Shown one piece after another: positions 6,516-14,599 of a stretch of 32,011 nucleotides of DNA (its first letter is position 1; each line of letters opens with the position of its first letter). The notes beneath the pieces were generated by a model that made no database searches, was not told where the DNA came from, and was given only the letters and a program-made list of their open reading frames with translations. This stretch comes from a virus (taxonomy: Duplodnaviria; Heunggongvirae; Uroviricota; Caudoviricetes), in IMG/VR virus record IMGVR_UViG_2695420503_000024, positions 1 to 32,011 of that record; one strand, written 5' to 3'. The translations under genes and the position numbers were made by a program.

Positions 6516-7034
6516 TCACAGGCCGATATTGCGGCGGTGTTGCTCCAGCCGGTCGACGCCGTTCACCTTCTCAATCATGTTGATGGTGTCGATTTCGACC
6601 AGCTCCTTACCGTCCATCGTCAGCCGGAAATAGGTGCAGACCACGGAGATTTTCGACTCGGTGTCTTCTCCCTGTTTACCCTCGCCGGTGTCGATTTCTT
6701 TCTGACGTCCACGCATGACCACTTCGACGGCCACCGTTTCGCCGGTATCGTCGCGCTGGTAAGAGCCTGCAAAACGAATCGGCACGGCATCCACACCGGT
6801 TGCGGCGTAAAGCTCCCAGATAACCGAATCCGGGAAGCCACCGAGCGACCACTCCATTGACAGCGCATCGTCATCAAGGCCGAGGTCTACCGGTGCGCTG
6901 CCGTTCATCCCCGCACCGCGATAGTTTTCGAGCTTACGGGTCAGTTTTGGTAGCGTGACGGACTTCGCGACGCCCTGATAGCTGTAGCCGTTCAGAAAGA
7001 CGTTCATTAACTTGAGTTTGCGCGGCATTGCCAT
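6516..7034 (-). CDS. FII: Tail tube protein gpFII (172 aa)
   Basis: MAMPRKLKLMNVFLNGYSYQG... and length match P2 FII. Confidence 0.88.
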   Translation of the reverse strand: MAMPRKLKLMNVFLNGYSYQGVAKSVTLPKLTRKLENYRGAGMNGSAPVDLGLDDDALSMEWSLGGFPDSVIWELYAATGVDAVPIRFAGSYQRDDTGETVAVEVVMRGRQKEIDTGEGKQGEDTESKISVVCTYFRLTMDGKELVEIDTINMIEKVNGVDRLEQHRRNIGL

Positions 7035-7046
7035 CGGTCAGGCTCC

Positions 7047-8237
7047 TTAATTGCTGTTAACCGAGGTGACCAGATTTGCCAGGTATTTATCGGTAATACG
7101 CTGTCGCAGGGTCAGGTTTTCAAGAGGAGGCACCGGTGTATAGTCGTAGTCGATATACAGTTTTCCGGCCTTGAGGGTTTCCGCATCGTTGGATTCTTCG
7201 CTGAACCAGCAGGTCGCATCCACGATATAGCCGTTTGTTTTCAGCTCACGGAATTTGGCATTGATGCCGTCAACGATGTCGCGAATCAGCGTTACAGTGA
7301 TGGGCTTGTCCACCGCCCACATGTGCGCCTCAGCCATCGTGTCGGCCAGCACCTGCGCGGTGCGGGTGTAGTTTTCAAAGAGGAACAGCGGGTCATCCGA
7401 GCAGGTACGGTTACCCCAGAAGCGGAAACCGTCACGGCGAATCAGCGTTGTGACACCTGACTCGTTCAACAGGTCAGCATCGGTGCCGGACTCCTGCAAA
7501 TCCCAGAATACAGAGGCACTGATGCCGGTAACACCGTTCACCCCGACGTTGGACAGCGTTTTATGCCAGCCCTGCTCCTGGTCGATTTTAGCGCGCAGCC
7601 CCAGCGCACGGGCGGTGGCATACGCGGTGGCGGTGGTGCTGCTGACCGTATCCCATGCGAGGAAATCCGGCCAGATGACCATCAGCTCACGCTGGCTGAA
7701 ATTCTGGCGGTAGGCTTTCACCTCGGAAATGGTTTTACAGCCCCATGCGCTGATATACCCGAAAGCGCGCAGCTTCTGACAGACTGATGCCAGTGTAACA
7801 GCCACCTCTTTGGTGTCCAGTCCCGGCACGCCGAGAATACGCGGTTTAACACCGGTTACCGATTCCGCCGCCAGCAGGGCTTTCAGTCCGGTGTACTGAC
7901 CGTTTTCGTCGGTGGTGCCGATGATATTGGAAACGGTCTGCGCGAGTTTCGTTTCTTCGTCTTCGCCGGTGCCGTCTTCCACACGGACGACAACGGTGAC
8001 CGGTTTTGACTGGTCAGCGATGGCCTGTAACGACGCCGCCAGCGTGCCTTTTTTACCGGCCTTTGCAATTGCGCTCTGCACATTGGTAATCAGCACCGGT
8101 TTATTGAGGGGGAAGATTTCCGCATCCGCATCGCTGGCCGTGCAGACCATGCCGACAATGGCGGTGGATACGGTGGAAATGACGCGGGTGCCGTCGTTAA
8201 TCTCCAGCACCTGCACGCCGTGATGATAGTCACTCAT
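7047..8237 (-). CDS. FI: Tail sheath protein gpFI (396 aa)
   Basis: Synteny and length match P2 FI. Confidence 0.88.
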   Translation of the reverse strand: MSDYHHGVQVLEINDGTRVISTVSTAIVGMVCTASDADAEIFPLNKPVLITNVQSAIAKAGKKGTLAASLQAIADQSKPVTVVVRVEDGTGEDEETKLAQTVSNIIGTTDENGQYTGLKALLAAESVTGVKPRILGVPGLDTKEVAVTLASVCQKLRAFGYISAWGCKTISEVKAYRQNFSQRELMVIWPDFLAWDTVSSTTATAYATARALGLRAKIDQEQGWHKTLSNVGVNGVTGISASVFWDLQESGTDADLLNESGVTTLIRRDGFRFWGNRTCSDDPLFLFENYTRTAQVLADTMAEAHMWAVDKPITVTLIRDIVDGINAKFRELKTNGYIVDATCWFSEESNDAETLKAGKLYIDYDYTPVPPLENLTLRQRITDKYLANLVTSVNSN

Positions 8238-8330: not shown

Positions 8331-8360
8331 GATAAAGAAAAGGCGGGCAATTCGCCCGCC
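8331..8360 (-). terminator. Candidate rho-independent terminator separating the variable locus from the FI operon
   Basis: Minus-strand hairpin GGCGGGC-GAATT-GCCCGCC followed by TTTTCTTTATC. Confidence 0.5.
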
Positions 8361-8366
8361 TGTCCT

Positions 8367-9493
8367 GATTTGTACTCACTCATTTTCCGACTGACAATTT
8401 ACGTAGCCCAAACGCTATCAAATATGACAGTCTGCTTTGAGCGAAAAGCGGACATTCCTGTACAAAGCATGGCGTTGGAATACAGTCAGATCATTGATTA
8501 ATAAGTGAGTCGAATCAGAACAGTAGCCAATGAAACAAAAAATTCGCAAACGTAACCAAGACTGGATATCAAGGCAATTGAAACGTGCGCAAAAGAGGAA
8601 ATGCCGTTAAGTTTCTTTATTAACTTTCCCTCAATATGAGCAACTGCTTGTAATTGTGTGCGCCTTAAACGGCATGGTCGTCTCAAGCCGGACTGGAGTC
8701 GCGCATTGTTTCATTAGGGTTGGGGAGAAGTGCCTATTGTTGGGCAAAAAGTAGTGTTTACTGGTTTGAGGGATTTGATAAGGAGCAATTGCCTGTTGAA
8801 TGGGGGGCGCTGTGGGAAGATGCCTGAATATATTGGTTTTGATTTGATCTCACAGTGCAACACACAATCAACTCTTACAGCCTGCTGTGAGCAAAAATTG
8901 CACATTTCTAACAGCCTTCCGTGTGAATCAACGGGGAGCAGGTCACTGGCACAGAGGGGACGTTTAACCCCGTCCGGCCTCCGCTGAATTGGCTGCCAAT
9001 TCCGTCCGGTCGTACCTGCCTGAGCCGTCTACTTCAGTAAAAACTGAATCAGCATAGCAAACATATATACTGTCGCTGCAATTTGTATTGTTCGCACTCC
9101 CCATCTGAGATATCGCCATTTATGACGTTCTCTGGCATCGGCTTCTTCAATGGTGGATTCAGTATGCTTTCTTCTCTTTGTCCTGAATGGATCAATTACC
9201 CATAGGGCAAGAATAAAGAGAACGATTGTTTTCTGAAGTATGGGATGATCCACGAAGAGTGACTCCGGCCTGCTCGCTGATACAATCAGAATAGATGAAC
9301 AATCCCGAAATAATCAACACTAAATGTATGGCAATTATTTATTTTCGTCCTGGCTGGACTTTGTGACCTGCTCCCAACAAATTAACATAGCACAATGTAA
9401 GCAAGTTCTGCTTTTGGCACAGAGCGGACGGTCAGATTAGGCTTTACTCTGTGCCATAGATATGTAAGCTCCCACCAGAGCTTATACAACTTA
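8367..9493. other. Variable cargo locus at the P2 Z/fun position, with no intact large ORF
   Basis: About 1.1 kb between the FI operon and the G stop; lower GC than the flanks; only short overlapping ORFs of 85 aa or less. Confidence 0.6.
9029..9253 (-). CDS. Hypothetical small protein (74 aa) with two predicted hydrophobic helices; GTG start
   Basis: N-terminal TIVLFILALWVI and C-terminal IQIAATVYMFAMLIQFLL hydrophobic segments flank a charged loop; GGAG lies ~10 nt upstream of the GTG. No ATG start, so it may not be translated. Confidence 0.25.
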   Translation of the reverse strand: MDHPILQKTIVLFILALWVIDPFRTKRRKHTESTIEEADARERHKWRYLRWGVRTIQIAATVYMFAMLIQFLLK

Positions 9494-10018
9494 TTACGGC
9501 ATTTCCGGCCATTCAGGATTTGCAGGATCCACACGGCTGACCAGAACGCTGTAGCGTTCCCATGACTCCAGTCGTGCGCGTTCCTCATCCGTCGCCATAT
9601 TCAGCCTGACAGCGCGTTCCAGTGGCTGAATAACGCTTTCCGCTTCGGAAAGTAACGCGGCCTTTTGTGATTCTGCCTGTTGTTGCTGTTCATCTGCCGT
9701 ATAAATCCGTTTAACCACAGCACCATCCTTAAACATCCATTTACCTGAGTCGTCAGCACGTCGGTTGAAGGTAATATCAGGAACCTCAACAACGCTAAAA
9801 CCTTCAGGATTAAGCGTTGAAGCATCTCTGGTGATAGCGACAATAATATTATTTTCATCGTAAACAATCTTTATTGTGTCTGGCTGAAAGTTCTTCACTT
9901 CTTCATACCAGTTTTTCCCGTCTTCAGTGTAAAGCCAGATGACTCCGTGCTTCTTTGTTAACTCATACTGTTCCAGTGTTTTAGCGTTACCCGCTTTTAT
10001 GTTCTTTAAGTGCATCAT
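9494..10018 (-). CDS. G: Tail fiber assembly protein gpG (174 aa)
   Basis: Position directly downstream of H and length match P2 gpG. Confidence 0.85.
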
Positions 10019-10019
10019 A

Positions 10020-12173
10020 TTAAACGCTCGCTACATTATACCAGGTGCCATTTATATACTTTTGAACGGGTCTGTAATAAACGCCCGCTATATTATCGGC
10101 AGAGTTGGAACCTGTATCCTGAACATTAATACCAGACAATACATGACCTGAAGCGCACTGGAAATTCCATGTTTGCCAGTTGTTCACTCCATAATATTGC
10201 TGTGAACCAAGTCGAACATCTTTCACATATCTGGAATCAAAATTGCCATAGTTGCCGGGAATAACTTGCGAGCCGCAAAGCCAGTTCCCGTTATTATCCA
10301 TGTACGCCTGACCATCGGTGCCATTGGCTGTCCTTGAGTTATTAATCATGTAGATGCCAAATTGCTTGTTCCCCAGTCCACCTATCATGAACTTGCGGTC
10401 GGCGTGATTCTGGCGAAGCAACGCCTGAGCGCTATCAGTGTTAACTATATTTTTCCCAAAGATAGCGTTGTTATCGCGCATCTGAATCCACATACCATTA
10501 CTGCTGTTAATAGCAAAACGGTCTGAAAGTGTCTCCCCTGAAACATTAAGACCACGCCCCATCGAAACAGCGCCAGTAGCGTTATTAATCCATAATGGCC
10601 TTAATCCGTTATAAGTCCCCATGTTGTCACCGGAGTTTGTCAACATGAAGTATGTATTTGAACCATCATTACGAATAAAGAATCCGTAATTACCATAAGC
10701 AATACGTAGGCCGTTTGCTGATTTTGATATGACTTCGCCATTTACAATGGCATTGACAAGAACATACAAAGCATCCCATTTAAGATTCATCAGGTCTTTT
10801 GTTGTAGTACTCTGGCGGCTTCTCCATTTGAAATATTCATTGCCGTTATCCCCCGTTTCAAACCACATGAATGAATCAGTGTCACCATCGGCATCATTTT
10901 TAAATCCAATCTTCGCCCAGTCAGTATTTCGAATCCAGGCAAGGATTGAGTCGTTTTCAAAAGTAAGTCCACCGGACAAGGTATCGCCATTTTTTTGCAC
11001 GGCGTTCCCGGCTCGGTTTACTGTTTCCTGTAAACCGAGATATTCGATAACGGCGGCAACGGTCGATTTAGCCAGAATATCCCGCCCAACTTTTGTCAGG
11101 GTTGCCAGGCTGGCAACATCATTCCCCGTAAAATACGGAAACCTGTCTGCCGCAGTAGCAAGCCCCGCCAGCGCCGTCAGGGTAGCATCTTTCGGTTGCT
11201 TACCCGCAAGCGCATTAGTCATGGTGGTAGCAAAATTCGGGTCATTGCCCAGCGCCGCCGCCAGCTCGTTCAGCGTATTCAGTGCGTCAGGCGACGAGTC
11301 TACAAGGGCGGCAATCGCGGCCATAACGAAAGCCGTGTTTGCGATCTGAGTATTATTCGTTCCCTGTCGCGCAGTTGGCGTCGTTGGCGTTCCGGTCAGT
11401 GCAGGGCTGTTTAATGGCGCTTTTTTGTTCGTTTCATCCATTACCGTCTTAACGGCTTTTGGTGTTGCGGCGAGCGTTTCAGACGTGCTGTTGGTGGCAC
11501 TACTGAGCTGGACAAGGCCTTTTCGCGCTGTGGTGGCGTCCTGTGCGGTATATTTCCCGTTAGCAAGGTCATATGCTGCTTTTACCGCTTTTGGTGTTGC
11601 GGCGAGTGTTTCAGACGTGCTGTTGGTCGCACTGCTTAACTGAGTAAAACCTTTTGCGGTCAGCGAGGCGTCCGGGTGACGTCGTGACTGTTCGTGCTCT
11701 GCAATTTTGTCATCAACATAATCCTGCGTCGCCATCACCGTTGTGGTGTCAATGGTCAGCGCCACTGAGGCCACACTGCTGACGATGATGACCATGCGGC
11801 AGGTCTGCGAACGCCCTGAGCCTTCGGCAAGAGCGGGTTTATAACTTTCGGCCATGTTCGCCACGGCAATTAACGTTCCAGCATCATCGTACAGGCCAAG
11901 CTCACGCATCCAGAAACCGCCCACCTCCGGCGGAATAACCAGCTCTGCGATAATATAATTACTGTTTCGTTTGTCCTGGCTGATTTTGTTCAGCGCATGT
12001 CGCCAGACTTCATGGATAAGCCCGGTCTGTCCGGCATCCGGGACAGGCAATTTACCACCGCCATCCCCGACGGCCATCGTGGTAATGTTGACCTTCCGCC
12101 CTCCCGGTGCGGTTGCCGCTGCCAGCTTTGCTGCACCGGCAGTGGTGATAACGGTTCTGAATTTTGTGCTCAT
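10020..12173 (-). CDS. H: Tail fiber protein gpH (717 aa)
   Basis: Conserved N-terminus, repeated [20 protein letters not shown] motif, and a lower-GC C-terminal part. Confidence 0.88.
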
Positions 12174-12183
12174 TATTCCTCAC

Positions 12184-12714
12184 TTATCCGGGGTAAACCG
12201 TAATTACATCGCCGTCGTAAGCCACACCACCGGCGAACAGGTAGCCGGGAATGTCCCGGGTAATGTTCAGGCCAATAAGGTGGCGGCTTGCAGGTTTGGC
12301 ATCAGCAATCAGCCGTTCCATTTCCTGATACATTGCCTCTGTGATGCCACTTTCCAGTACACCAATATCAAGCCGGAAGGTGCCGGGCGGGTCACTGTTT
12401 TCCCACCACTCCGTCACGTTGATGAGATAGCCGAGCGGCTCCACCACACGCCGGATTGCACCTATAGTGCCTTTATGACAGTGGATGAAATACGCATCGC
12501 GGATAACGGCGCGTTTTGTCGCTTCCGGCCACTTCTCATCCCACCTGTCGACCGAAAACGCCCACGCCAGCCACGGCAGCAAATTTGCCGGACAGGTATC
12601 CGGGTTCCACAGCTCACGAATACTGACCGGCGTTTTTTCAATTTCCGCACAGGCTTTTGCGGCGGCGACCTCAAGCGGTGATGAGCCGGTCGGCAGCAGT
12701 CGCGAATCACTCAT
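12184..12714 (-). CDS. I: Baseplate assembly protein gpI (176 aa)
   Basis: Synteny and length match P2 gpI. Confidence 0.85.
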   Translation of the reverse strand: MSDSRLLPTGSSPLEVAAAKACAEIEKTPVSIRELWNPDTCPANLLPWLAWAFSVDRWDEKWPEATKRAVIRDAYFIHCHKGTIGAIRRVVEPLGYLINVTEWWENSDPPGTFRLDIGVLESGITEAMYQEMERLIADAKPASRHLIGLNITRDIPGYLFAGGVAYDGDVITVYPG

Positions 12715-13615
12715 CCGAGCCTCCGGTCACGACGCGGTATTCAGTACAGAAAGACGCCTGCGTACTGTTGAGCACGATGTCGGCCAGTGGTGCAGCCAGT
12801 TCGACACGCTGCACACCTTCCACATGCAAAGCGGCATAAATGGCAGACAGACGGATGTCGCGCCCCAGCCGGTGCTGTGCCGTGATATACGCTTCCAGCT
12901 TTTTCACAGCGGCAGCGCGGATGGGTTCGCTTTCGGGACCAGGGTAAAGGTAAAGCGTGGCGTTTATCTGGTATTCAACGATGGCGGCAGACTGCACGGT
13001 CACGCGGTCGGCCACCGGCCTGACGTCCTCGCCATTAAGGGCGTTACGCACCACAGCCAGCAGGTCTTCGGATGCGACGCCGTTATTTTCACGTGACAGC
13101 ACAGAGATGGTGACACAGGCAGGAGACGGGCTGGTGACAGAGATATCCGCGACACGCCCGTCGGCACTGCGACCATGATACTGATAGGCACCCACCGACC
13201 CGGCGACGCTTAAACCTTCAAACGCCTGCTGAATACGCAGACGATAATCAGTGTCAGATTCCATCACTGCCGGTGTCGGCGGGATAGTCGAATCATCTGC
13301 CGGGGTGATAATCAGGCGCGTGGTGTTGTAATTGGCACCAATCACATCAAGGTCATTACCGGCAGCACAGGCCAGCATCACCGCCCGTGCGGCCTCATTC
13401 ACACGCTGACGCCAGATAAGCTCACGATAAGCATTTTCCTCCAGCAGTTTGACGAGAGGTTCGGATTCCAGCGTCAGGGTACGGGCGACCGCCTCCTGCT
13501 GGTCTTCCGGGTAAAGGGAAATCAGTGTCGCCTTGCGTTCGGCAAGAATGGTTTCAAAGTCCAGCTCCTCGACCACATCCGGTGCGGGTAGCTGGTTCAG
13601 GTCGATAATCGGCAT
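12707..13615 (-). CDS. J: Baseplate protein gpJ (302 aa)
   Basis: Synteny and length match P2 gpJ. Confidence 0.85.
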   Translation of the reverse strand: MPIIDLNQLPAPDVVEELDFETILAERKATLISLYPEDQQEAVARTLTLESEPLVKLLEENAYRELIWRQRVNEAARAVMLACAAGNDLDVIGANYNTTRLIITPADDSTIPPTPAVMESDTDYRLRIQQAFEGLSVAGSVGAYQYHGRSADGRVADISVTSPSPACVTISVLSRENNGVASEDLLAVVRNALNGEDVRPVADRVTVQSAAIVEYQINATLYLYPGPESEPIRAAAVKKLEAYITAQHRLGRDIRLSAIYAALHVEGVQRVELAAPLADIVLNSTQASFCTEYRVVTGGSDE

Positions 13616-13619
13616 GGTT

Positions 13620-13967
13620 TCAACTCACAGGGATGGTTAACGAAAGTGGCTGGCCGGTGTCGTTGTGCTGGCCGGTTAACGTGACCGTCATTCGCCCGTC
13701 AAAACTGCGCTCAGTGGTGACGGATGACAGGATGACGCGGGGTTCCCATTTCAGCACCGCCATGTAACAGGCGACCTTAATCTGCAACTCAAGCGCCGGG
13801 GTCTGCGGCTGGTCAATCATTGATGCCAGCAACGAGCCGTAATCACGACGCATCACCCGTGAGCCGACCGGTGTGCGCAGGATATCGCCGATACTCTGGC
13901 TGATATGCTCAAGGTCAGTGACAGTCAGGCCATCACTGCGATTCATTCCGAGATAACGTGCTGTCAT
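13620..13967 (-). CDS. W: Baseplate wedge protein gpW (115 aa)
   Basis: Synteny and length match P2 gpW. Confidence 0.85.
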   Translation of the reverse strand: MTARYLGMNRSDGLTVTDLEHISQSIGDILRTPVGSRVMRRDYGSLLASMIDQPQTPALELQIKVACYMAVLKWEPRVILSSVTTERSFDGRMTVTLTGQHNDTGQPLSLTIPVS

Positions 13968-14599
13968 AGAGGACTCCCGGTTGTGCCGCCGCTGTCTCCT
14001 GGGTGTTTGTGGGTATGCAGTACCTTACCGTTTGATGAGAGTTCACCGCCGGTGTGTTCAATGTTGCCGCGCATCGTCCCGCCCTTCTGCACTTCCAGCG
14101 TGCCGGTAATCAGCCTGTTGGTGCAGACCACCTCCGGTGTGTCCAGGGTGACACGGGTTGATGCTTTCACCATGACCACCGGCACCGTGGCAGTAACAGA
14201 ATCAGAAGCCGTCACGCTGACCGTTTTAATTCCGCTTACCGTGAGTGCACTGGTTTCGGGTTCATACTCAATCACCGCCCCGTCAGGGAAACGGATATAC
14301 AGGGCATCCGCCGACGCAGACGGCGCGGGGTTATCGCCGGAATAAATCCCCGGCAGAACGAACGCCGTGTCGAGTTCACCGCCCACAGCCAGAATCAGCA
14401 CCTGTTCCCCCACGGAAGGTGCCCACCATGTGCGCGAACGTCCGGCACGATGGGTCAGCCACTGAAGCCAGTCAGTGCACATGCCGCCGGTCTGCACACG
14501 GCAGCGACCGGCGTTAAGGTCGGTTTCGACGACAAGGCCGGTGCGTATCATGTTGCGCAGTGCGCGCGCGAGTTCCTGAATATTTGCGAGAGTGTTCAT
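13964..14599 (-). CDS. V: Baseplate spike/assembly protein gpV (211 aa)
   Basis: Synteny and length match P2 gpV; stop overlaps the W start. Confidence 0.85.
   Translation of the reverse strand: MNTLANIQELARALRNMIRTGLVVETDLNAGRCRVQTGGMCTDWLQWLTHRAGRSRTWWAPSVGEQVLILAVGGELDTAFVLPGIYSGDNPAPSASADALYIRFPDGAVIEYEPETSALTVSGIKTVSVTASDSVTATVPVVMVKASTRVTLDTPEVVCTNRLITGTLEVQKGGTMRGNIEHTGGELSSNGKVLHTHKHPGDSGGTTGSPL

Follow-up and report, generated by a model that had tools for sequence, protein, structure and literature searches.

Evidence for a conserved, mobile gene encoding a small two-helix membrane protein in the P2 G/FI (Z/fun) variable slot

T4 Imm and the HK97 gp15 moron are small inner-membrane proteins that act in superinfection exclusion. 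MgrB, MgtS, AcrZ and SgrT are small proteins that modulate inner-membrane proteins of the host, and the type I toxins (Hok/Gef, Ldr, TisB, Zor) are usually shorter than 60 residues with one helix. For the Z loci of P2, the title of a 2004 paper by Nilsson, Karlsson and Haggard-Ljungquist (Mol Biol Evol 21:1) reportedly proposes site-specific recombination. Defence systems of the G/FI (Z/fun) hotspot are the subject of Rousset et al. 2022 (PMC9122126) and Moura de Sousa et al. 2026 (PMC13586616), both of which present the slot as an anti-phage hotspot. The latter reports near-identical cargo across unrelated mobile elements and states that the mechanism of cargo exchange is still to be elucidated.

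We analysed the 32,011 nucleotides of the Caudoviricetes record IMGVR_UViG_2695420503_000024 (the window), in which an earlier note had proposed a small two-helix membrane protein at the Z/fun locus. The ORF listing agrees with the 74-codon, GTG-initiated frame described there: on the minus strand, with the start at 9253-9251 and a TAG stop at 9031-9029, it encodes a 74-residue product, MDHPILQKTIVLFILALWVIDPFRTKRRKHTESTIEEADARERHKWRYLRWGVRTIQIAATVYMFAMLIQFLLK. The ORF is flanked by P2-like genes for tail-fibre assembly and sheath, being downstream of G (9494-10018, minus strand) and upstream of FI (7047-8237, minus strand), and, as had been stated, is co-oriented with the tail genes.

9029..9253, minus strand: 74-codon gene for a predicted small inner-membrane protein with two transmembrane helices (phrog_25496), from the ORF listing, alignments and coding tests
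9263..9266, minus strand: Shine-Dalgarno sequence GGAG with a 9-nt spacer to GTG, read from the sequence

This GGAG (9266-9263) is the one that had been placed about 10 nt before the start, and the frame upstream of the GTG is, again as described, open for exactly 20 codons with no ATG, GTG or TTG in them. The leader CCGGAGTCACTCTTT-GTG is kept in 12 of 15 orthologous loci, the remaining loci deviating by 1-2 bases, and in Kluyvera cryocrescens (L019), as in two distant members (L047, L048), the corresponding codon is ATG. Since GTG and leader are kept across genera, with ATG at this codon elsewhere, the start assignment is supported, a correction to the earlier note, which had held the lack of an ATG against the ORF.

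Thirteen orthologues from eight genera, sharing 58-99% protein identity, are all exactly 74 codons (225 nt) long without a single indel. The ORF frame is the sole one of the six that is open in 13/13, the other five containing 1-9 stops per sequence. Among the 13, pS is 0.344 and pN 0.138, a 2.5-fold synonymous excess per site (Fisher p = 3e-14), and variability by codon position runs third > first > second. The earlier note had named a Ka/Ks near 1 as grounds for rejection; the median dN/dS is 0.35, and the ORF is conserved as a protein. As judged from these alignments, 9029-9253 (minus strand) encodes a genuine protein. That it is instead a chance frame within a conserved non-coding element (a regulatory RNA, a recombination site or a remnant), with no gene there, is very improbable. 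Such an element would agree with the GTG start, with DNA conservation that runs past the ORF on both sides, by about 150 nt at its 5' end and about 100 nt at its 3' end, and with the absence of a RefSeq/PGAP annotation there in every complete E. coli genome that carries it (26/26). Yet every coding test came out positive, other pipelines call a hypothetical protein at the ORF, and the architecture of the protein persists in members of 25-45% identity, whose DNA is unalignable and lacks the flanking sites. The reading frame accounts for the conservation down to 25% identity and neither an Rfam family nor a conserved RNA fold spans the ORF, so that the non-coding reading is not supported and, as far as sequence analysis goes, is refuted.

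The two hydrophobic stretches and the charged loop of the earlier description were recovered: Kyte-Doolittle 15-residue means exceed 1.6 at residues 3-25 and 55-73, and the loop at residues 24-54 has 11 K/R against 5 D/E. AlphaFold2 places helices at residues 4-25 and 37-73 (pLDDT 69). The product is predicted to be a helical hairpin, with TM1 at about 5-23, TM2 at about 55-73, a short N-terminus and a single residue after TM2. By the positive-inside rule the loop is predicted to be cytoplasmic and both termini periplasmic, and in the model the basic loop continues into a conserved helix, I35-x2-A38-x3-E42-x3-W46-R47. The motif A-x3-E-x3-W-R shows no variation in the family; A38, E42, W46 and R47 are invariant, and the architecture is kept, in 27 members, down to 25% identity. 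In the family alignment, conservation peaks in this charged cytoplasmic loop and motif, above the hydrophobic helices. A holin was considered and rejected, as the single residue after TM2 leaves no charged tail, the gene is not in a lysis cassette and no holin family matches.

The protein matches the phrog_25496 profile (PHROGs v4) with E = 2.4e-24 and 86 bits, residues 2-73 aligning to positions 2-74 of 75, and all 27 aligned relatives match it as well. The family is catalogued without name, function or literature and is confined to Enterobacterales, with 46 representative clusters among 1.84 billion proteins. When the 74-residue protein was searched by tblastn against 50,697 phage records, P2 and its relatives included, nothing was found at E <= 1e-3. 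Since no deposited phage genome in this set encodes the family, phrog_25496 probably stems from prophage-derived entries.

With T4 Imm and HK97 gp15 the protein shares the size class, the predicted two-helix inner-membrane topology and a variable 'moron' slot amid temperate-phage tail genes, in late-operon orientation; as expected of a prophage moron, the insert lies between genes that are adjacent or otherwise filled in related phages. It has no sequence similarity to them in the Pfam scan, which presumably includes an Imm family model, and its family is also found on chromosomes and plasmids. With P2 fun(Z), the 'lysogenic protein' of P2-EC58 (ORF1) and the slot's defence systems, the gene has the slot and its flanking sequences in common. 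The protein is nevertheless unrelated to P2 Fun(Z), as the tblastn against the P2-containing records was empty, and in contrast to the slot's defence systems it is far smaller than typical and is not recognised by PADLOC (0/27 family members). A membrane factor expressed by the lysogen that interferes with incoming phage is, tentatively, the most likely role, as the gene occupies the G/FI variable slot, which relatives fill with other cargo. Against this role, the gene is in none of the deposited phage genomes, and the searches returned nothing similar to known exclusion or defence proteins: Pfam and NCBIfam had no significant match for the window protein or its relatives, and a PDB sequence profile search found no relative of the 74-residue protein. 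Foldseek matches to viral structures (BFVD) were insignificant (best E = 1.7), a helical hairpin being too generic a fold. The motif and the junction-site sequences described below had no match in the literature text searched, a body of text without Nilsson 2004 and Odegrip 2006. What stands of the original proposal, then, is that a small membrane protein with two helices is genuinely encoded as cargo of the P2 G/FI slot; an exclusion or abortive-infection function is not established, there being no homology to known exclusion, defence or toxin families.

The insert between G and FI is about 1 kb long and is made of two cassettes, A and B, the 74-codon gene being its sole intact gene. Together with the conserved sequence that precedes it over about 150 nt and a trailer of about 100 nt, the gene forms a cassette of about 0.5 kb between 24-nt imperfect palindromes. 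The 24-nt consensus of these sites is GTCCGCT-N10-AGCGGAC, with TGTGCCA or TCGCTCA as central spacer, and the pattern occurs three times in the window against 0.06 expected.

9405..9429, minus strand: left junction site of cassette A, GTCCGCTCTGTGCCAAAAGCAGAAC (TGTGCCA type), repeat family D1
8938..8961, minus strand: degenerate 3' site of cassette A, GTCCCCTCTGTGCCAGTGACCTGC, from the alignment of downstream flanks
8881..8903, minus strand: left site of cassette B, GTGCAATTTTTGCTCACAGCAGG (TCGCTCA type, degenerate), repeat family D1
8530..8827, plus strand: cargo of cassette B, a decayed ORF of about 99 residues, from tblastn with the protein of locus L003
8430..8453, minus strand: right junction site, GTCCGCTTTTCGCTCAAAGCAGAC (TCGCTCA type), from repeat and pattern searches

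The 3' site of cassette A is intact in Silvania (L014), where it reads GTCCGCTCTGTGCCAGAAGCGGAC. In orthologous loci the sites stand at about -176 and about +298, with a site at +297/+298 in 9 loci. The match to locus L003 begins at the left site of cassette B, which reads GTCCGCTTCTCGCTCACAGCAGAC there; L003 also has the intact form of the cassette B ORF (WP_087603053.1, a hypothetical protein); in the window this ORF falls into three tblastn pieces, each in a frame of its own, and carries two in-frame stops besides at least two frameshifts. At the outer ends, 9405..9429 is P2 slot in its left half and cassette in its right half, homology between four contexts starting with ...GTGCCAAAAGCAGAAC, while in 8430..8453 the left part is cassette and the right part P2 slot, the homology ending with GTCCGCTTTTCGCTCA. 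The site at 8430..8453 also corresponds to the point where the P2-EC58 annotation (AJ512683) has its 'right inverted repeat' begin, and the outer junction sites of the window lie at the inner ends of the repeats that are annotated in the P2 Z region as 'left/right inverted repeats' (AJ512683, AJ512677). In P2-EC58 these repeats enclose other cargo, and P2-like phages match the flanks only (in the G-FI interval, query positions 1-~75 and ~1036-1256), the insert being absent from all of them.

Lambdoid prophages also contain the 1-kb insert, as do loci next to P4-type integrases and next to EcoRII, with 98-99% identity, and in the junction alignments of the four contexts homology breaks inside the sites. 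The mobile unit is a cassette bounded by short palindromic sites, here joined to a second, decayed one; it has been exchanged among prophages (P2-type, lambdoid and other), islands with integrases, plasmids and chromosomes. As to base composition, GC is 0.404 in the ORF, 0.43-0.46 in the insert and 0.564 in FI, with G (0.455) and distal H equally low. We consider it almost certain that the ORF is a real, conserved and mobile small-membrane-protein gene. Elsewhere, cassettes with the same sites carry DRT and retron reverse transcriptases, SLATT/2TM effectors, PD-T7-1, PDC-S15/S35/S39, TIR and HEPN proteins and CdiI/SUKH immunity proteins. Because the pool further includes transporters, acetyltransferases and NUDIX/HAD enzymes, the cassette context is only a weak prior for defence.

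Like integron cassettes and the dif/pdif modules of Acinetobacter plasmids, which serve as models of architecture only, these are short, promoter-poor units of one or two genes with imperfect palindromic sites; they too occur frequently in arrays, the same cassette is found in unrelated replicons and homology breaks within the site. Unlike in integrons, the sites do not have the attC RYYYAAC/GTTRRRY cores, nor are they dif, and no integron integrase (IntI) is adjacent in the arrays examined. It is conceivable, if rather unlikely, that the palindromes serve for recombination in an integron-like cassette-exchange system of Enterobacterales that has gone unrecognised, with the 74-residue protein as one of its most travelled cargoes and a new single-gene exclusion factor. 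A pair of such sites, which come with either the TGTGCCA or the TCGCTCA spacer, would then define a slot in P2-type and lambdoid prophages, integrase islands, plasmids and chromosomes, and any two slots would trade, in a directional manner, cassettes that hold one or two genes and often serve against phages. A widespread 200-residue Xer-like tyrosine recombinase (WP_023147793 type) may act on the sites in trans. Seen at six loci, this recombinase is Xer-like by NCBIfam, yet far below every family cutoff, and its gene, set among sites, always starts 40 nt past a half-site. As the cassette recombinase it was set aside, being present in only 1/79 site-selected and 1/58 ORF-selected loci, and the window has no tyrosine recombinase related to it; we keep it as a lead and make no claim for it. 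The exchange may proceed by a site-specific recombinase or by short-homology recombination.

The gene is restricted neither to P2 nor to phages, as it is also found on chromosomes, plasmids and other islands. The identical protein occurs on 475 contigs, which come from five genera. It was seen immediately after a P4-type integrase, next to the EcoRII restriction-modification system, at a prophage end next to an O-antigen acyltransferase and in the lambdoid DUF977/hok slot. A paralogue adjoins a small serine recombinase, a class reported to mark defence loci (PMC13552941). For phage exclusion, the contexts near P4-type integrase, EcoRII, hok and the serine recombinase count in favour, as do the defence genes of same-site cassettes. 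In Enterobacter the gene has a fixed chromosomal site, in single copy and flanked by yebG and a LysR regulator, in many genomes (115 collection blocks), and several other chromosomal contexts are without obvious mobile-element genes; both fit a role in host physiology equally well.

The protein is possibly a small regulator that binds and, in the manner of MgrB-type proteins, modulates an inner-membrane protein of the host (a transporter, a sensor kinase or a protease) and has spread because it is useful in some niches. Host regulation is nearly as likely as phage interference. Beyond the stable Enterobacter position and the contexts free of mobile elements, it would be in keeping with a gene that has its own conserved upstream region, with the metabolic and transport genes of same-site cassettes, and with a conservation peak in one specific charged cytoplasmic helix, as expected of a protein-protein interface. 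No neighbouring gene is conserved beside the ORF, however, the neighbours varying between genera, and an adjacent target is thus lacking. In E. coli and its relatives, moreover, the identical protein is almost confined to prophage or island hotspots, with the gene in 26/5,426 complete E. coli genomes, which makes it unlike a housekeeping regulator. Two other neighbourhoods gave no lead: the link to gtrABC, seen in Citrobacter only, was treated as coincidence, and no domain was found in the 165-residue partner of a 53% paralogue.

The region around the ORF was also searched for transcription signals and RNA elements.

9254..9351, minus strand: conserved leader and upstream region, from the conservation profile and alignment
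8332..8361, minus strand: intrinsic-terminator-like hairpin with T-run, past the insert and before FI, from the terminator scan

Conservation is about 90% from -50 to -1 and about 70-77% from -100 to -50. By inspection, a -10-like TACATT (9328-9323) and a weak -35-like AGGACG (9351-9346), 17 nt apart, may form a promoter; the promoter scan gave none above threshold on the ORF strand. The hairpin at 8361-8332 is the first terminator predicted 3' of the ORF on its strand and lies past cassette B. The lack of a scan-level promoter and of a terminator between the ORF and 8361 is a further point against the exclusion role. No convincing LexA, PhoP or sigma-E motif was seen by eye in the leader. Rfam searches, at E <= 1 for the region and at gathering thresholds for the whole window, yielded an IS009 hit inside G, taken as chance, a CyaR far away and nothing else. 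The consensus fold of the leader has -6.96 kcal/mol with a covariation term of -0.67, and the single-sequence z-score against shuffles is 0.19; a riboswitch or thermometer-type leader was rejected, the fold being neither conserved nor unusually stable. On the opposite strand, a sigma-70-like site at 9259-9286 (plus strand) is antisense to the leader.

This antisense site is one of the signs that would point to a membrane-depolarising toxin, either of a type I toxin-antitoxin system or as an abortive-infection effector, that kills or arrests the cell. The product is, as many type I toxins are, small, hydrophobic, stand-alone, started by a non-ATG codon and mostly unannotated, it is promiscuous among plasmids, prophages and chromosomes, and in two cases it adjoins hok loci. 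It differs from them in having 74 residues, two helices and a conserved charged loop of 30-31 residues, in which, rather than in the helices, conservation is highest, and in matching neither Hok, Ldr nor any other toxin family in Pfam. In orthologues the -10 of the antisense site changes from TACAAT to TACAAG, TGCAAG or TAAAGG, and the plus strand has no predicted terminator, for which reasons an antisense small RNA was rejected. With neither a conserved antisense RNA nor a structured leader fold, and with no conserved partner gene adjacent, the type I toxin reading is not supported, and the toxin version of the earlier proposal is disfavoured; overall, a killing or arresting function is improbable.

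A distant member of the family is located in the leading region of F-like plasmids, beside hok and between psiA/hok and traM. This region is transferred first and is rich in anti-defence genes, and the protein might by this token help an incoming phage or plasmid past host barriers. The arrangement is rare, however (6 plasmids, too few for the gene to be identified as a leading-region gene), the P2 slot of the gene carries lysogen-expressed cargo, and a membrane hairpin is unusual among known anti-restriction or anti-CRISPR proteins. We regard such an establishment role as quite improbable.

Under the exclusion role, which we prefer with the reservations given, the lysogen would produce the 74-residue protein from the cassette's own promoter, and during lytic growth it would also be produced by read-through from the H-G late transcript. 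Once inserted into the inner membrane, its conserved juxtamembrane cytoplasmic helix would bind a host or phage inner-membrane component, and a competing phage would be blocked at, or soon after, DNA entry, by superinfection exclusion or defence. In this the protein would resemble other cargo of the P2 G/FI slot.

A gene under clear purifying selection is thus absent from the RefSeq annotation of its E. coli carriers, and surveys of the P2 hotspot that are based on annotated genes will score the slot as empty or as holding only a pseudogene. The gene is a candidate for a membrane-level phage-exclusion or host-modulating factor and, with 225 nt and three invariant polar or aromatic residues in the cytoplasmic helix, is cheap to test. 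The cargo pattern agrees with the one given in PMC13586616, as near-identical copies of the 74-residue protein occur in unrelated mobile elements. A single 1-kb unit whose breakpoints fall within 24-nt palindromes, and which is shared by mobile elements of four unrelated kinds, constitutes a natural experiment, and as the same sites bound many known defence genes, it bears on how unrelated elements swap hotspot cargo. If true, the cassette-exchange system would supply the exchange mechanism that is sought in that paper.

The P2-type tail genes leave an interval of 1,256 bp between G and FI, in which the 74-codon ORF lies. The features of this region are as follows.

10020-12173, minus strand: H, P2-type tail gene
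9494-10018, minus strand: G, P2-type tail gene
9266-9263, minus strand: GGAG, 9 nt 5' of the GTG
9029-9253, minus strand: 74-codon ORF with a GTG start
7047-8237, minus strand: FI (sheath)
6516-7034, minus strand: FII (tube)

The earlier note had described this ORF accurately: the GTG follows the GGAG at a 9-nt spacing, the 20 more open codons 5' of it include no ATG, GTG or TTG, and the product has hydrophobic segments at residues about 5-23 and 55-73, with a loop bearing 11 K/R and 5 D/E between them. A CyaR/RyeE small-RNA gene at 1445-1530 on the plus strand (Rfam RF00112, 100.7 bits) points to host chromosome, beside the P2-type prophage, at this end of the window.

Protein searches returned relatives of the same length with 58-99% identity, and the gene was recovered at 15 genomic loci of Enterobacter, Kosakonia, Kluyvera, Silvania, Citrobacter, Raoultella, Klebsiella and Rahnella. 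Thirteen orthologues of full length all have an ORF of exactly 225 nt with no indels, and it is the sole stop-free frame of the six, the other five containing 1-9 stops in each sequence. Variability in this set is highest at the third codon position, then the first, then the second (median dN/dS 0.35), and in six phylogenetically disjoint pairs pS was 0.344 vs a pN of 0.138 (Fisher p = 3e-14). Orthologues conserve both the GTG and the CCGGAGTCACTCTTT in front of it; the same codon is ATG in the L019 locus and in the distant members L047 and L048. The earlier note would have taken the ORF as refuted if it were not conserved as a protein (Ka/Ks near 1), which does not fit the dN/dS observed, or if it mapped within a longer conserved noncoding element. 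Rfam has no family over the ORF; the leader, the only segment folded, showed no conserved RNA structure; and since the protein pattern and its invariant residues are kept down to 25% identity, a non-coding element cannot account for the conservation. By these sequence comparisons 9029-9253 is a genuine gene, and a spurious ORF is very improbable.

When 1.84 billion representative proteins were searched with a profile, only 46 clusters came up, nearly all of 60-110 aa. The alignment of 27 of these, reaching down to 25% identity, has a shared pattern of TM1, a basic cluster, I-A-x-A-[DN]-A-x-E-[RQ]-x-x-W-R-[YH] and TM2, in which A38, E42, W46 and R47 are invariant. All 27 match phrog_25496, annotated in PHROG as function unknown; no family member matched Pfam, NCBIfam, PADLOC or PDB sequences. 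AlphaFold2 predicts a helical hairpin (helices 4-25 and 37-73, pLDDT 69) with the conserved motif at the cytoplasmic start of helix 2, and a fold search with this hairpin was uninformative. Together the data support a small protein of the inner membrane that would make a specific contact through its cytoplasmic juxtamembrane helix. A membrane toxin is improbable: the size of the product and the pattern of family conservation argue against it, and no antisense RNA, structured leader or partner gene was found.

The family is restricted to Enterobacterales and labelled "hypothetical" in every source. One UniRef cluster containing the 74-aa protein (RepID A0A483IRC9_KLEPN) is called 'Glycosyltransferase family 1', almost certainly a mislabel, possibly spread from a neighbouring gtr gene. 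The exact window protein occurs on 475 contigs, which come from Escherichia, Shigella, Salmonella, Klebsiella and Enterobacter and point to recent horizontal spread. RefSeq has no annotation at the locus in any of the complete E. coli genomes inspected, although 26 of 5,426 carry it.

The G-FI insert (about 8430-9429) was found in no deposited P2-like phage; only its flanks are common to them. The same 1 kb, 98-99% identical, recurs in several other settings.

Settings of the 1-kb insert in the comparison loci
Lambdoid prophage, in the interval from a DUF977 gene to hokD: L002, L031, L183
Beside an EcoRII restriction-modification system: L182
Beside a putative restriction-enzyme-like ORF and a P4-type integrase, related to L182: L029, L030
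Immediately following a P4-type integrase, beside mutS: L174-L177
Following the tail-fibre assembly genes of another prophage, adjoining an O-antigen acyltransferase: L178
Similar prophage ends without the acyltransferase: L180, L181
Enterobacter sichuanensis: L009

Imperfect palindromes of 23-24 nt stand at both insert ends and at one internal junction, and the pattern was observed three times in the window vs 0.06 expected.

9405-9429, minus strand: insert end palindrome
8938-8961, minus strand: further site of the palindrome family
8881-8903, minus strand: internal junction palindrome
8430-8453, minus strand: insert end palindrome

In the junction alignment, homology across contexts starts on the left at ...GTGCCAAAAGCAGAAC and ends on the right at GTCCGCTTTTCGCTCA|; it breaks inside the site, the outer half-sites being a property of each recipient locus. 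The insert is made up of two cassettes. Cassette A (9429 to about 8938) contains the 74-aa gene, with a TGTGCCA-type site at each end. The sites of cassette B (8903 to 8430) are of the TCGCTCA type, and its opposite-strand ORF has decayed to a pseudogene at 8530-8827 (plus strand), interrupted by no fewer than two frameshifts and two stops. The ORF, of about 99 aa, is intact at the L003 locus (WP_087603053.1, no Pfam domain), where B occurs without A. At least four contexts have the two cassettes together, 98-99% identical; other genera carry A alone, its sites placed at about -176 and +298 relative to the GTG. Since the sites are missing from distant members of the family, the gene family predates its capture as a cassette. 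A strong terminator-like hairpin of nine pairs (seven G-C) and a T-run lies at 8332-8361 (minus strand), between the insert and FI; transcripts from G or from a putative cassette promoter would traverse cassette B antisense and end there. In P2-EC58 (AJ512683; Nilsson et al. 2004), the "left inverted repeat" ends, and the "right" one begins, with members of the site family.

The sites (GTCCGCT-N10-AGCGGAC, with TGTGCCA and TCGCTCA as the two main spacer types) extend well beyond P2. At least 120 stretches in viral contigs carry the exact pattern, against a rough chance expectation of about ten, and P2 G/FI slots made up 20 of the 79 loci retrieved from the scan. Site-family loci (the window, L052-L130 and L184-L187) include prophage, island and plasmid contexts. 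Many are arrays of 3-7 sites, in which each ORF or ORF pair is delimited by a TCGCTCA-type site followed, some 16-18 nt on, by a TGTGCCA-type one; among 64 cassettes of this kind the median length is 1.4 kb, most holding one or two ORFs. Anti-phage cargo comprises DRT and retron-type reverse transcriptases with SLATT/2TM partners, PD-T7-1, PDC-S15/S35/S39, TIR, HEPN and CdiI/SUKH immunity proteins, and ordinary accessory cargo comprises BCCT and LysE transporters and GNAT, NUDIX and HAD enzymes. A third spacer variant, GTCCGC-AATCGGCCAGA-AGCGGAC, separates the roughly 150-aa ORFs of the L114 array (9525-14193), which includes an SMI1/KNR4 (SUKH) immunity-type protein.

A tentative candidate for the enzyme of cassette exchange is a 200-aa tyrosine recombinase, consisting of the catalytic domain only and Xer-like by NCBIfam at scores far below every family cutoff. 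It was found at the following places in the comparison loci.

L179, 4864-5463: beside the cassette pair
L062, 9384-9983: inside a site array
L184-L187, about 9054-9669

The L179 and L062 copies are 97% identical. In six independent contexts the gene starts 40 nt past the half-site |CGCTCATAAGGGAC, and the left half-site differs in each. Its neighbourhoods have 3-5 sites per 18 kb vs 0.13 per shuffled 32 kb. Of 5,426 complete E. coli genomes, 905 (17%) have the recombinase, which belongs to a very large family, 78-97% identical across Gammaproteobacteria; there is none in the window, and it occurs in only 1/79 site-selected and 1/58 ORF-selected loci. It may act on the cassettes in trans or may itself be another cassette.

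Relatives of the 74-aa gene occupy other contexts as well. In Enterobacter (L041-L046, 5001-5225) it has a fixed chromosomal position, flanked by yebG and a LysR-type regulator, with one site of the TGTGCCA type at +297 and a further site roughly 2 kb downstream; these sites indicate that chromosomal intergenic regions also serve as cassette slots. Such a fixed site, together with other non-mobile contexts, speaks for a regulator of host physiology, a role we rank second, a little below phage exclusion or defence. A 53%-identical paralogue always comes after a hypothetical gene of 165 aa that has no domain (L171/L172, 4386-5844; L025, 4385-5246); the pair is found in a tRNA-Gly island next to a small serine recombinase, or flanked by IS1 copies on plasmids and chromosomes. 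Small serine recombinases have been reported as defence-locus markers (2026; PMC13552941). A 36%-identical member, rare in PLSDB (6 plasmids), is part of the leading region in F-like plasmids (L048-L051, 5001-5228), in the order ssb, parB-like, psiB, psiA, hok, this member, ... traM. An anti-defence or establishment role is quite improbable.

The earlier note's guess of an exclusion or abortive-infection factor is reasonable as a hypothesis. Because of the repeated placement in conflict-gene hotspots and the cargo of the sister cassettes, we place a phage-exclusion or defence role expressed in the lysogen first, as a tentative reading.

The site sequences were not found in the literature searched. 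A 2026 paper (PMC13586616) describes the recombination that swaps cargo between unrelated elements at P2/P4 hotspots as still to be elucidated. The 74-aa gene is a new, so far unannotated small accessory membrane protein of a prophage variable slot, and as such of a familiar kind; the palindrome-bounded cassette, with sites shared by many mobile-element hotspots, is a more unusual result than the gene itself.
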